From UHGV virus genome UHGV-0106827: 35,998 nucleotides of DNA; one strand, given 5' to 3'. Position 1 is the first letter of the stretch. Every line of letters starts with the position of its first letter. Shown here piece after piece: positions 24,844 through 29,236 of the stretch. The notes below the pieces were generated by a model, which was not told the DNA's origin, ran no database searches, and saw nothing but the letters and a program-made list of their open reading frames with translations. A program made the translations under genes and the position numbers. This DNA comes from a virus.

Positions 24844-26148
24844 CTATATAAACTTAGATACAATATCGTGAATCTGTTGTAGCGGGATATCTTCCATCTC
24901 ATTCTTAATAAGAGAGCGGTTAGATGCTGTCAGTGAAGGCCATTTTGTTTTCCAGGCTAGATATGCTCGCCATGAGTAGCCTGTTTCGTAAGGTTTATTC
25001 ATATAAGTCATTGAGTGTTCAACCGCATGTATGTATTTTTTCTCAAAATTGGTTCCTTTTACTTCAAATAAACTACCGAAATAAATAAGCCATTTTGCCA
25101 GGTGTTCATACTGCTCCCATGCGCCAGGCTTTTTAGTAAGCTCTATTTTTTTATCTATTATATTACAAAAAACATTTAATACATTTTCATTATTCCAGCT
25201 ATATCCAGATGATGAAATGGAGGAAATGATATGATAAAAAGAATCCTCTAGCTTCAAGAACTCTATTTTATACTCTCTTCCGTTTTTTATTACCGATTTG
25301 ATTGAGTGCCTCAATTTGTCTTTTATTTTTTTTGCTTCTGGAATTTTATCGTTAAGTTTTCTAAAGAAATCAGATACCTCTGTTTTATCTATAACCCTAA
25401 CCCCATAGCAGGAAAAATAGTAATCTTTAATAGGTTGCAATAGTTCCCCTCGGGAAACAAGGAAAATATTGGAGGACATTACGTTGTCCCGTGAAAATAC
25501 CTTATATTCATTTATAATAGCCTTTAGGTTCGCGTCACTTAGAGAATAGCCAAGGATAACAATAGTGTTTTCATGTAGAACTGTGCTTAGTTTATTAGAA
25601 AAGTAAGAATTACCATTTATAAATCTGAAATAATCCTCGCTAGTAACAACCATGTCTGATGGGGAGTCTATAGAACCGTGAACATGGTAGACTTTAACCT
25701 CACAATTATATTTTGGAATTGGCAGGCCGGGGGTGATTGTACAAGTTCGATTCTCTCCAGCCAGCTTTTCTGCTAACTTGTCATAATTTGTCGTAATTAC
25801 TTTAAATGTGTTTTCTTTGAAAAAGTCTTGAATATATTCAATTGATGGATCAAGTTCGATTGAGGCTATGATTTTCTCAATCTCTTGGTAAATATTTTTC
25901 CCCGAAAGTATAAGTTTTAGTGCAATAACCTGAGCAGCTTCTTCAAGGCTAAGGTCTTTTGCTTTTCCATCAGGAAATAATTCCTCTTTGAGTGAGTCAC
26001 CATCCTTCAATAAACCGCACAGTTGCTCCAATAAAGATTGCCAACTTGGGGCTTTATCATCAGAAACAGCCTTTGAAAATCCAGTGCCTGTAAGAAAGCA
26101 CAGCCTATGTGTAGCCGCTGCATAGGCAATTTCTATATACTCGCTCAT
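24844..26148 (-). CDS. SIR2-like (ThsA-type, SIR2_2 family) NAD+-hydrolase domain protein with an uncharacterised C-terminal domain; candidate defence effector
   Basis: 434 aa. Motifs FLTGTGFS (res ~18-25), VITTNYDKL (catalytic Asn) and VYHVHGSIDSPSDMVVTSEDY (catalytic His) occur with the spacing seen in ThsA/DSR sirtuin-like domains; IVILGYSLSDANL matches the family's FVGFSFTDPNL strand. The gene is markedly AT-rich relative to its flanks. Confidence 0.8.
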   Translation of the reverse strand: MSEYIEIAYAAATHRLCFLTGTGFSKAVSDDKAPSWQSLLEQLCGLLKDGDSLKEELFPDGKAKDLSLEEAAQVIALKLILSGKNIYQEIEKIIASIELDPSIEYIQDFFKENTFKVITTNYDKLAEKLAGENRTCTITPGLPIPKYNCEVKVYHVHGSIDSPSDMVVTSEDYFRFINGNSYFSNKLSTVLHENTIVILGYSLSDANLKAIINEYKVFSRDNVMSSNIFLVSRGELLQPIKDYYFSCYGVRVIDKTEVSDFFRKLNDKIPEAKKIKDKLRHSIKSVIKNGREYKIEFLKLEDSFYHIISSISSSGYSWNNENVLNVFCNIIDKKIELTKKPGAWEQYEHLAKWLIYFGSLFEVKGTNFEKKYIHAVEHSMTYMNKPYETGYSWRAYLAWKTKWPSLTASNRSLIKNEMEDIPLQQIHDIVSKFI

Positions 26149-26204: not shown

Positions 26205-26993
26205 TTATAGATAATTTCCTTTTCCTGTTAATACTCCCTTAGGCACCTGTTTTTGTGCCAGCGTTTGGGTCCCGCGAATTATGTTAATCAGAGGGCTTAG
26301 TAACGATGGTTCCTGGCGTGCCTCAACTTCTCCAGCCATTGCCCTGATGTAGTCGGCGCTGGCAACGTTGTTGTATTCCGTCGCAAAGCAACATAGTAAC
26401 GTCAGAACATGCTCTGTCGTTATTTCGCTCCAGTTGATGTTGAAAAATTCATCGCCTTTTTTATCGTGTTCGGAATCGAAGATGCTTTGGTGGAGGATGT
26501 ATTTGCCGGATTCCTTGCGCGGTAACTTGATTGCTTTCTGGCGTTCCAGCTCCTTATAAATCTGCATTGCCTCAATTAGTACCGGCCTGCCGTTCATGAA
26601 GGGATCGCGCAACCTTACACGCTGGCCAACTCGACCAGTAATAAAGCTGTTTTCCTCTTCCACCAGCACGATAAAACCCTTTTCCTCTTTTTCTCGCAAT
26701 TCGCGCAGCAGCTGGAGTTCCATATCGCGGCGGCGTTCAGGGTAGCTGGTCCGCTCAGCCATTATTAGCTCATTGTTGATCCATGCAGCAGTCATTGACG
26801 CCGGTTTGCCGACGCTCATCGAAACAACGCATATTTTCTTATCCATAGCGCCCCCTACAAAAAAGAAAAGCCACCAGCGGCGGCTTAGCAATACAACTGA
26901 AGGTAGCGCCCGGTACTCAGACTGTGCCGTCCATGGAATATTTGAAAAGGGATCCATCCGTACCGGGCATGTGATGATTCTGACTGAAGTCAC
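26205..26993 (-). CDS. Mat-like protein (position of the P1 particle maturation gene; identity not verified)
   Basis: Track ORF 262 aa; a likelier start is ATG 26844-26846 (213 aa) with a G-rich SD. Normal GC; lies between ref and the island. Confidence 0.45.
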   Translation of the reverse strand: MTSVRIITCPVRMDPFSNIPWTAQSEYRALPSVVLLSRRWWLFFFVGGAMDKKICVVSMSVGKPASMTAAWINNELIMAERTSYPERRRDMELQLLRELREKEEKGFIVLVEEENSFITGRVGQRVRLRDPFMNGRPVLIEAMQIYKELERQKAIKLPRKESGKYILHQSIFDSEHDKKGDEFFNINWSEITTEHVLTLLCCFATEYNNVASADYIRAMAGEVEARQEPSLLSPLINIIRGTQTLAQKQVPKGVLTGKGNYL

Positions 26994-27035
26994 TTGTCAG
27001 TTGTCAATTATTTCAGATTAAAAATAATATATTTA

Positions 27036-27596
27036 TTAGTGCATGATGTTTGCCATCTCATAGGCGTCAGCCAGCAACTCCATCTCTGACTTGTTCAGCA
27101 AGGTGAATTCTTTCTTGCCTCCAACCACACCATCGGCATGAACAGGGACCAGCCAGGGGTATTTTTCTCTTACTTCAGCCGGTGCTGCATGCTGGTGGTG
27201 CCATCTACAAAGGGGCAATTGCTTTTTGTGACAACCCGGCGCGGTACGACCGGAGATATGGTGCAGAGATACCTCTTCAGATATTACTCCATGCATGTGG
27301 CAGGCAATGCAGGGGAGAGCGCCAAGAGCATTGGCGATGCTCCGTTCCTCCGCTGTCGATGTTCGCCCCTTCAAGCCACGAGATTTTATCTTTACCGCAC
27401 TTTTCCGCGTTTTGCTGGCTGGTGGGCGCTCTTTCTGTTTAGCGATACGGCGGTCGATAGAATCCCGCATTTTCTGATATTGCGATTCTCGCCAGGCGGG
27501 GTCAGCCAACTTTTCCCGTTGCCGAGCGATCGCTCGTTCTCTGGCTGCCTTCTGCCACTCGCGGCGCTGTTCAAGTTTTTGTTCGATTGTTTTCAT
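27036..27596 (-). CDS. ref: Ref recombination enhancement function (HNH-type endonuclease)
   Basis: 186 aa from MKTIEQKLEQRR, the size I recall for P1 Ref; very basic N-terminus and C-terminal Cys/His cluster CIACHMHG...HHISGR...CHKKQLPLCRWHH; downstream of a C1 operator. Confidence 0.8.
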   Translation of the reverse strand: MKTIEQKLEQRREWQKAARERAIARQREKLADPAWRESQYQKMRDSIDRRIAKQKERPPASKTRKSAVKIKSRGLKGRTSTAEERSIANALGALPCIACHMHGVISEEVSLHHISGRTAPGCHKKQLPLCRWHHQHAAPAEVREKYPWLVPVHADGVVGGKKEFTLLNKSEMELLADAYEMANIMH

Positions 27597-27601
27597 ATGG
27601 C

Positions 27602-27627
27602 AAAAAAAAGGCGGCCTAATGGCCGCC
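27602..27627 (-). terminator. Terminator-like hairpin plus U8 tract in the ref leader (candidate attenuator)
   Basis: On the minus strand GGCGGCC-ATTA-GGCCGCC followed by TTTTTTTT, ending 5 nt before the ref ATG and about 55 nt downstream of the predicted promoter. Confidence 0.5.
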
Positions 27628-27687
27628 AATGATGTCAAGGAGTTAAGTAATGGCAACGTCTTCGTAGTTGACAAAAACTGCGGCTTA

Positions 27688-27696
27688 ATTATAGCA
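27688..27696 (-). promoter_or_regulatory. Extended -10 promoter (TGCTATAAT) for ref, overlapping a C1 operator
   Basis: Minus strand reads ATTGCTCTAATTGATTGCTATAAT; no good -35, consistent with an extended -10 promoter. Confidence 0.5.
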
Positions 27697-27711
27697 ATCA
27701 ATTAGAGCAAT
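27695..27711 (-). promoter_or_regulatory. C1 operator (14/17 to consensus) upstream of ref
   Basis: Minus strand ATTGCTCTAATTGATTG. Confidence 0.55.
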
Positions 27712-27842
27712 GGTAGATATTTTGTTAATCGCGAATCACATTTTTTCACTTCAGTACCTGTGTGCTATACTCCTTCTTGATTGATTGGATGCGGAATACA
27801 AACCCGCTCTTTTGTGCAGCCTGGCTCCTTGCCAGGCTTTTT

Positions 27843-28154
27843 TTATTTCATCATGGAAGCTGTTAACGCTTTGGATCTTGCTGAACTGATTGAAAGGGCA
27901 TTGTTTACCTTACCCAGGAGTTCGCCAAATTCCACCATCACTCTAGTAAGCCCGCGCCGCGCTTCCTCCTCCGTTGCATTCATCACAAAATGTTCAGCAC
28001 TCCGCATGCTTTTAACGGGGAACGCAACAGATATCGAGTCGATATCAGGCATCCTATCGCTCAACTTTACGGTGACAATGACAGATGGTGACTGAATTTG
28101 AGAGCTTACAGACAGCACCACATATTTTCCGTCTATTTTGAAATCCTTCCGCAT
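27843..28154 (-). CDS. Hypothetical protein between cre and ref (cra-like position)
   Basis: 103 aa; a C1 operator and a TTGATT-15-TATTTA promoter-like sequence lie immediately upstream; the mRNA would be nearly leaderless. Confidence 0.4.
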   Translation of the reverse strand: MRKDFKIDGKYVVLSVSSQIQSPSVIVTVKLSDRMPDIDSISVAFPVKSMRSAEHFVMNATEEEARRGLTRVMVEFGELLGKVNNALSISSARSKALTASMMK

Positions 28155-28170
28155 GCGTCACCATAAATAT

Positions 28171-28187
28171 CAAATAATTAGAGCAAT
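28171..28187 (-). promoter_or_regulatory. C1 operator (14/17) between cre and the cra-like gene
   Basis: Minus strand ATTGCTCTAATTATTTG. Confidence 0.55.
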
Positions 28188-28204
28188 CAAGCGCAAATGA
28201 ACGG

Positions 28205-29236
28205 CTAATCGCCATCTTCCAGCAGGCGCACCATTGCCCCCGTTTCACTATCCAGGTTACGGATATAGTTCATGACAATATTTACGTTGGTCCAGCCACC
28301 AGCTTGCATGATCTCCGGTATTGAAACTCCGGCGCGGGCCATATCTCGCGCGGCTCCGACACGGGCACTGTGTCCAGACCAGGCCAGGTATCTCTGACCA
28401 GAGTCATCCTTAGCGCCGTAAATCAATCGATGAGTTGCTTCAAAAATCCCTTCCAGGGCGCGAGTTGATAGCTGGCTGGTGGCAGATGGCGCGGCAACAC
28501 CATTTTTTCTGACACGGCAAAACAAGTAGTTATTCGGATCATCAGCCACACCAGAGACAGAAATCCATCGCTCGACCAGTTTAGTTACCCCCAGGCTAAG
28601 TGCCTTCTCTACACCTGCGGTGCTAACCAGCGTTTTCGTTCTGCCAATATGGATTAACATTCTCCCACCGTCAGTACGTGAGATATCTTTAACCCTGATC
28701 CTGGCAATTTCGGCTATACGTAATAGGGTGTTATAAGCAATCCCCAGAAATGCCAGATTACGTATATCCTGGCAGCGATCGCTATTTTCCATGAGTGAAC
28801 GAACCTGGTCGAAATCAGTGCGTTCGAACGCCAGTGCCTGTTTTGCACGTTCACCGGCATCAACGTTTTCTTTTCGGATCCGCCGCATAACCAGTGAAAC
28901 AGCATTGCTGTCACTTGGTCGTGGCAGCCCGGACCGACGATGAAGCATGTTTAGCTGGCCCAAATGTTGCTGGATAGTTTTTACTGCCAGACCGCGCGCC
29001 TGAAGATATAGAAGATAATCGCGAACATCTTCAGGTTCTGCGGGAAACCATTTCCGGTTATTCAACTTGCACCATGCCGCCCACGACCGGCAAACGGACA
29101 GAAGCATTTTCCAGGTATGCTCAGAAAACGCTTGGCGATCCCTGAACATGTCCATCAGGTTCTTGCGAACCTCATCACTCGTTGCATCGACCGGTAATGC
29201 AGGCAAATTTTGGTGTACGGTCAGTAAATTGGACAT
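28205..29236 (-). CDS. cre: Cre tyrosine site-specific recombinase
   Basis: 343 aa, MSNLLTVHQNLPALPVDATSDEVRKNLMDMFRDRQAFSEHTWKMLLSVCRSW... ending ...MVRLLEDGD: the Cre sequence as I recall it, adjacent to loxP. Confidence 0.97.
   Translation of the reverse strand: MSNLLTVHQNLPALPVDATSDEVRKNLMDMFRDRQAFSEHTWKMLLSVCRSWAAWCKLNNRKWFPAEPEDVRDYLLYLQARGLAVKTIQQHLGQLNMLHRRSGLPRPSDSNAVSLVMRRIRKENVDAGERAKQALAFERTDFDQVRSLMENSDRCQDIRNLAFLGIAYNTLLRIAEIARIRVKDISRTDGGRMLIHIGRTKTLVSTAGVEKALSLGVTKLVERWISVSGVADDPNNYLFCRVRKNGVAAPSATSQLSTRALEGIFEATHRLIYGAKDDSGQRYLAWSGHSARVGAARDMARAGVSIPEIMQAGGWTNVNIVMNYIRNLDSETGAMVRLLEDGD

Follow-up and report, generated by a model that had tools for sequence, protein, structure and literature searches.

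The hairpin in the ref leader of a P1-family phage is probably a working, leaky intrinsic terminator

The hairpin and the run of eight U residues that separate a C1-controlled promoter from the ref gene of this phage genome are best explained as a working intrinsic terminator in the ref leader, corresponding to the attenuator of P1 ref, and we consider it likely that this terminator is leaky and is passed mainly by passive read-through. The window (the whole stretch of DNA analysed, 35,998 nucleotides, from UHGV virus genome UHGV-0106827) belongs to a P1-family phage, read on the reverse strand, because it carries the genes for Cre, C8 and Ref, resembles phages RCS47, JL22 and P1, and encodes a Ref protein that matches the solved structure PDB 3PLW. 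A leader terminator is already known from P1, judging by the title of Windle, Laufer and Hays 1988 (J Bacteriol 170:4881), which states the attenuator reading for P1 ref, and the sequence described here is identical to that of P1 in every functional element. Among the papers searched, none maps transcripts for the ref region or describes the 1988 experiments.

The hairpin lies in the c8-ref intergenic region, and the open reading frames of the window place Cre at 28205..29236 and C8 at 27843..28154, both on the minus strand. The 1.2 kb around the hairpin showed 99.5-99.7% identity to phages RCS47 and JL22 and 93.4% identity to reference P1, while the 186-aa product matched the P1 Ref crystal structure over its full length (residues 1-186, E = 5e-117) and was 94% identical to P1 Ref. 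Alignment to the P1 record AF234172 gave four substitutions in about 300 nt, at 27727 (within the motif for H-NS described in P1), 27713 (in the -35), 27686 and 27644, which leave operator, -10, hairpin, U-tract and spacer unchanged. The P1 ref region, consisting of P2ref/Oref and the leader attenuator, is this locus as it occurs in a close relative and shows no functionally relevant difference. The features of the region are listed below.

27036..27596, minus strand: ref, whose 186-aa product is a RecA-dependent HNH nuclease, with an ATG 5 nt past the U-tract and no Shine-Dalgarno sequence (SD)
27597..27601, minus strand: spacer GCCAT, followed by the ATG at 27596..27594
27602..27609, minus strand: U8 tract immediately 3' of the stem, with 7 to 10 T residues in each of the 41 distinct leaders
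27610..27627, minus strand: terminator stem-loop GGCGGCC-ATTA-GGCCGCC, with G·C at 7 of 7 pairs and a 4-nt loop
27629..27634, minus strand: -10 of the predicted promoter P1ref, CATCAT preceded by TGn, given in AF234172 as 'predicted sigma 70 promoter P1ref' and scoring 9/12 plus TG in our scan
27639..27642, minus strand: CUCC, an anti-SD-like motif just 5' of the hairpin, present in 41 of 41 distinct leaders and unpaired in the minimum-energy fold
27651..27657, minus strand: GUUGCCA, a weak candidate antiterminator segment from prefix folds, coinciding with the P1ref -35 TTGCCA
27597..27681, minus strand: predicted ref 5' leader of about 85 nt, its start placed about 7 nt past the -10
27688..27696, minus strand: extended -10 of P2ref, TGCTATAAT, read from the sequence and mapped from the P1 annotation
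27695..27711, minus strand: C1 repressor operator (Oref of P1), ATTGCTCTAATTGATTG, overlapping the promoter spacer and TG
27716..27711, minus strand: weak -35 of P2ref, CTACCA

The operator matched the 17-bp asymmetric C1 consensus ATTGCTCTAATAAATTT at 14 of 17 positions and was identical to the Oref annotated in AF234172, which describes it as "controls transcription of ref", names the promoter P2ref, marks the predicted P1ref further downstream and gives no terminator. Across the window, eight C1-operator-like sites with at most 3 mismatches were observed, compared to 0.17 expected by chance. The TG of the extended -10 is formed by the final two operator bases, and the -10 hexamer occupies 27693..27688, an arrangement that fits the P1 type of C1-controlled promoter-operator, in which a predicted C1 site overlaps the promoter. 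Both elements proved highly conserved, as the operator core TTGCTCTAAT was found in all 41 distinct leaders, and TATAAT was invariant in 67 P1-type sequences and also present in the leaders of the JK004 and Salmonella types. A further C1-operator-like sequence, ATTGCTCTAATTATTTG (14/17), lies at 28171..28187 on the minus strand, 17 nt ahead of the start codon of c8, and the P1 record annotates no operator at its counterpart. At 27725..27731 on the minus strand the window reads CGATTAA, compared to the H-NS motif CGATAAA reported for the P1 ref regulatory region (PMC4713147).

The preliminary description of this DNA had placed a C1 operator over the extended -10 about 100 nt upstream of ref, and a 7-bp GC stem with eight U residues ending 5 nt before a start codon that had no obvious SD. 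Each of these elements was recovered on the minus strand where it had been placed, with 92 nt separating the end of the -10 from the ref ATG. As to translation, no SD was found upstream of the ref ATG when anti-SD duplex energies were calculated, the best duplex reaching -1.5 kcal/mol compared to -6.4 kcal/mol in a relative with GGAG. Read backwards from its ATG, the ref frame meets no stop over 35 codons, as far as a TTG at 27701, and so crosses both terminator and promoter; we do not think this meaningful, because a stop-free run of this length has a chance of about 0.2 and the TTG precedes the inferred start of transcription.

The hairpin (27627..27610) has a predicted ΔG of -16.2 kcal/mol (z = -4.1), none of 200 shuffled sequences folded equally well, and within the full leader, which folds at -23.4 kcal/mol (z = -3.3), its pair probability was about 1. 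When strict criteria were applied (7 or more Watson-Crick pairs, 6 or more of them G·C, and a T-run of 7 or more), only two terminators were found on both strands of the 36 kb, namely this one and another 190 bp away, at 27819..27837 on the plus strand. Downstream of cre and c8 the hairpin is the first terminator on the minus strand, and no other lies between cre and ref. Nothing speaks for a functionless palindrome that arose by chance except that lax terminator-like matches are common in the window (56 found, about 37 expected). By contrast, not one site of equal strict quality appeared in 300 first-order Markov simulations, and the stem is invariant beside a variable loop and carries compensatory changes between lineages, as described below; the chance explanation is effectively refuted. 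The GGCGGCC palindrome was also considered as a repeated DNA element and rejected, as it occurs only once in the window.

In order to compare the locus, Ref loci were gathered from phage, plasmid, genome and viral-contig collections, and the layout was found in three lineages. Among 67 distinct P1-type sequences, the 5' arm of the stem varied at none of its 7 columns and the -10 at none of its 6, and in the 3' arm only the basal C was changed, to T. Variation was seen instead in three of the four loop columns (ATTA, ATCA and TAAA all occur), in the length of the T-run (7-10), in about 50% of the other leader columns and in 61% of ref third-codon positions. In the second lineage, comprising Cronobacter phage JK004 and four Salmonella phage-plasmids, Ref is about 64% identical and the layout is retained: operator and TATAAT are followed by a leader of about 85 nt in which a stem of 7 bp with a loop of 4 nt leads into T7-8 just ahead of the start codon, with the stem itself reading differently (GACGGTC/GACCGTC). 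A Pantoea alvi contig carries a third version, GCCGCC-TCCG-GGCGGC followed by T7, about 45 nt past a near-consensus operator; no further Pantoea-type leader was matched in the plasmid collection.

RNAalifold, applied to 20 distinct diverged leaders, returned the hairpin as the sole consensus structure. All stem cells of this alignment were paired, compared to 14-79% pairing in slid controls, and in two of the seven pairs both partners had been replaced (G-C to A-U and C-G to U-A); these compensatory changes go back to what is essentially a single split between lineages and represent one or two events. The comparison shows that the pairing of the stem has been kept by selection, and the hairpin with its U8 tract has the G+C-rich stem, the U-run and the selected pairing that characterize predicted intrinsic terminators. 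The gene upstream of the leader is unrelated among the P1-type, JK004/Salmonella and Pantoea lineages, and the conserved unit is therefore limited to operator, promoter, terminator and ref; on the same ground, c8 was rejected as a linked regulator. Neither operator nor hairpin was found at the Ref homologues of the D6 type, of Klebsiella plasmids, of Pantoea pPSP-26e or of ten other genomes, and because these homologues do without it, the hairpin is not required for ref in general.

We propose the following sequence of events. When C1 leaves the operator, RNA polymerase would start at the extended -10 promoter P2ref and transcribe about 80 nt, after which most polymerases would be released at the U-tract and ref mRNA would be made by the read-through fraction only. 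This mRNA would be poorly translated because its start codon has no SD. C1 repression, joined by H-NS in P1, would stack on termination and set a low ceiling for a nuclease that is harmful to the host and to lysogeny, and the hairpin would additionally block read-through from cre and c8, because it is the first terminator that their transcripts would encounter. The claim of the preliminary description that C1-controlled transcripts would meet a terminator before ref gains support from the conservation of the stem and from the title of the 1988 paper.

Expression data from P1 bear on how often the terminator would be passed. In P1, ref is repressed by H-NS as well as by C1, and Ref lowers lysogenisation 40-fold; ref mRNA rises 73-fold after C1 inactivation, a value given without normalisation for phage replication, and peaks slightly later than the mRNAs of other C1-controlled genes (PMC4713147). 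This 73-fold rise makes it clear that transcription does get past the terminator in P1. In JK004-type phages, whose leaders have no room for an internal promoter, ref would be expressible solely through read-through of the terminator. On the other hand, a perfect stem of seven G·C pairs followed by U8 might terminate too well for a passive leak, which would argue for active relief.

Such relief is central to a second explanation, in which the terminator is a regulated switch that is efficient by itself and is overcome in lytic growth by a trans-acting antitermination function of the phage or of the induced host. The authors of the 1988 study of P1 ref are reported to have proposed that an antitermination function active during lytic growth relieves the terminator. 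Apparent terminator strength, the dependence of JK004-type phages on read-through and the slightly late peak of ref mRNA would all be accounted for in this way, and the wording of the 1988 title also agrees with it. In addition, a 2023 paper that cites the 1988 work speaks of 'strong indications' of an antitermination protein in P1, while noting that direct evidence for one is lacking (PMC10695390). Against this explanation, the leader contains no nut-, put- or other known cis family and, besides the terminator, no conserved structure. No candidate factor was identified either, and c8 is not conserved beside the module. An upstream competitor helix is present, as GUUGCC (27657..27652) can pair with the 5' arm before the 3' arm has been made, but this pairing is about 9-10 kcal/mol weaker than the terminator. 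Across lineages, the competitor helices are worth -2 to -8 kcal/mol and involve GUUGCC in P1-type and ACUGUC in JK004-type leaders at non-homologous positions; in 8 of 37 P1-type leaders the GUUGCC pairing is lost or rearranged, and by our estimate about 0.3 matches of this kind per leader would be expected by chance. We regard the regulated switch as possible, if rather doubtful.

Several specific devices were considered and set aside. A conserved RNA antiterminator helix is unsupported, since RNAalifold on the 20 leaders recovered the terminator and no antiterminator helix, and the competitor is weak and not conserved. Leader-peptide attenuation was rejected as well. The leaders of JK004 (L002) and of the Salmonella plasmid pCVMN1543 (L003) do contain small AUG-initiated frames, MTKSLYSPP* (9 codons) and MNSP* (4 codons), but the AUG is missing in two other Salmonella plasmids (L104 and L105) and P1-type leaders have no AUG frame. 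Both small frames (L002 759..788 and L003 764..778) end at a UGA that overlaps the first bases of the stem, and this overlap is probably coincidental because the frames are not conserved in the two other plasmids. A known RNA family was likewise rejected, because all Rfam matches were far below their gathering scores: the search of 26900..28300 returned no family at threshold, the best match reaching 22.4 bits against a gathering score of 41, and an E-value search of the same interval gave no match to a described nut-, qut- or put-like element. The preliminary description had suggested attenuation or antitermination at this site. Attenuation is supported by the conservation of the hairpin before ref; no self-contained antitermination device was found, with no conserved alternative helix, leader peptide or Rfam family detected.

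These results also place the ref leader among known systems. The terminator lies between the inferred transcription start and the start codon, as in leader attenuators, and the trp, pyrBI, T-box and riboswitch attenuators share an intrinsic terminator between promoter and start codon; unlike in them, no conserved antiterminator helix, leader peptide or ligand or tRNA domain was found in the ref leader. Because no sensing element was found in the leader, the sensor would have to lie outside the leader RNA itself if read-through is regulated, and if read-through is actively raised, the agent is probably a trans-acting factor. The lambdoid N/nut and Q/qut systems share an early phage terminator in a repressor-controlled lytic transcript, and a relief factor has been suspected for P1 too; the ref leader differs in that no nut-, qut- or put-like element was detected and in that its terminator guards one accessory gene, whereas those relieved by N or Q guard a long operon. 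No antiterminator protein has been demonstrated in P1 (PMC10695390), and the window takes in 36 kb of the genome, whose full size is about 95 kb.

Passive read-through at the terminator, the explanation that we favour, has a further competitor in the predicted promoter P1ref of the P1 record, a feature absent from the preliminary description, whose transcripts would skip the terminator. This promoter reads TTGCCA-16-TGaCATCAT, and transcripts from it would begin at about 27623..27620, within the 5' arm or the loop of the hairpin. If ref mRNA came from P1ref, starting inside the 5' arm, its transcripts would lack the terminator, and the hairpin would serve mainly as an insulator against transcripts from cre, c8 and P2ref, in keeping with its place as the first terminator on the minus strand past cre and c8. 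The promoter carries an annotation in AF234172, and only one of the six columns of its -10 varies among P1-type sequences. It is just a predicted promoter, however, and matches of 9/12 are no commoner here than in shuffled sequence. Moreover, it is not obvious that C1 would repress P1ref from a site about 40 bp upstream of its -35, yet ref is strongly C1-controlled, and the JK004/Salmonella-type leaders have no P1ref (an 11-nt gap falls at its -10) but keep the terminator. We hold the insulator explanation to be unlikely, and regard P1ref as a promoter that may supply basal expression in phages of the P1 type and not as the main explanation.

The leader might also matter as a product in its own right. 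The unit from promoter to terminator, about 80 nt in length, could yield a small RNA under C1 control, with the hairpin and U8 as an Hfq-type module at its 3' end and a single-stranded CUCC as its seed, and ref expression would be secondary. The CUCC motif is present and unpaired in every one of the 41 leaders, and a precedent exists in StxS, a small RNA that arises from early termination of a phage transcript (PMC7547250). That source gives the StxS RNA of the Shiga-toxin phage PR' transcript a phage promoter, a strong terminator within about 80 nt and a hairpin with a U-tail, and its likeness to the ref leader is one of sequence layout that bears on this speculative possibility only. Against a small RNA stand the poor conservation of the leader between lineages outside the operator, -10, CUCC and hairpin, the failure of any Rfam family to match, and the constant position of the module directly before ref. 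We give this possibility little credence. In Salmonella-type leaders (L003, L104 and L105) the CUCC could pair with an SD (GGAG or GGGA) past the U-tract and enclose the terminator; P1-type leaders have no SD available for such pairing.

A divergent unit adjoining the ref leader, with its own promoter-like site and terminator, is a further point in favour of small RNAs. Its elements are as follows.

27743 onward, plus strand: promoter-like sequence TTTTCA-17-TGcTATACT from a sequence scan, with its -10 at 27766..27771
27818..27845, plus strand: second strict terminator, AGCCTGGC-TCCTT-GCCAGGCT followed by T7, about 45 nt past the promoter-like site

The predicted product of this unit, unannotated in AF234172, is an RNA of about 68 nt (27778..27845), divergent from P2ref. 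Among P1-type loci the stems of its terminator are invariant and the loop is variable, and the unit is absent from JK004-type phages. In Rfam the sole match to the unit was SorX, below threshold at 22.6 bits against a gathering score of 46.6. Pairing of the plus-strand RNA with the ref leader or the 5' coding region was considered and rejected, being no better than for shuffled sequences (p about 0.57). By analogy with StxS, the c8-ref intergenic region could hold two divergent small-RNA genes, one for the C1-controlled leader of about 80 nt with its CUCC, acting in trans, and one for the plus-strand RNA of about 68 nt, a picture to which we attach even less weight than to the small-RNA reading of the leader by itself.

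Elsewhere in the window, the 434-aa product of 24844..26148 on the minus strand contains a SIR2-like domain (Pfam PF13289, E = 2e-23) and matches the PADLOC candidates PDC-S25, ThsA-like and LmuA-like. Its gene lies just beyond mat, at the position of res in reference P1, and is probably swapped defence cargo.

What the present analysis adds to the attenuator of P1 ref is comparative data, which indicate that a module of operator, promoter, terminator and ref travels as a unit and has been under selection in at least three diverged lineages of phage-plasmids. The compact leader would also offer a ready reporter with which to screen for a possible antitermination factor of P1.
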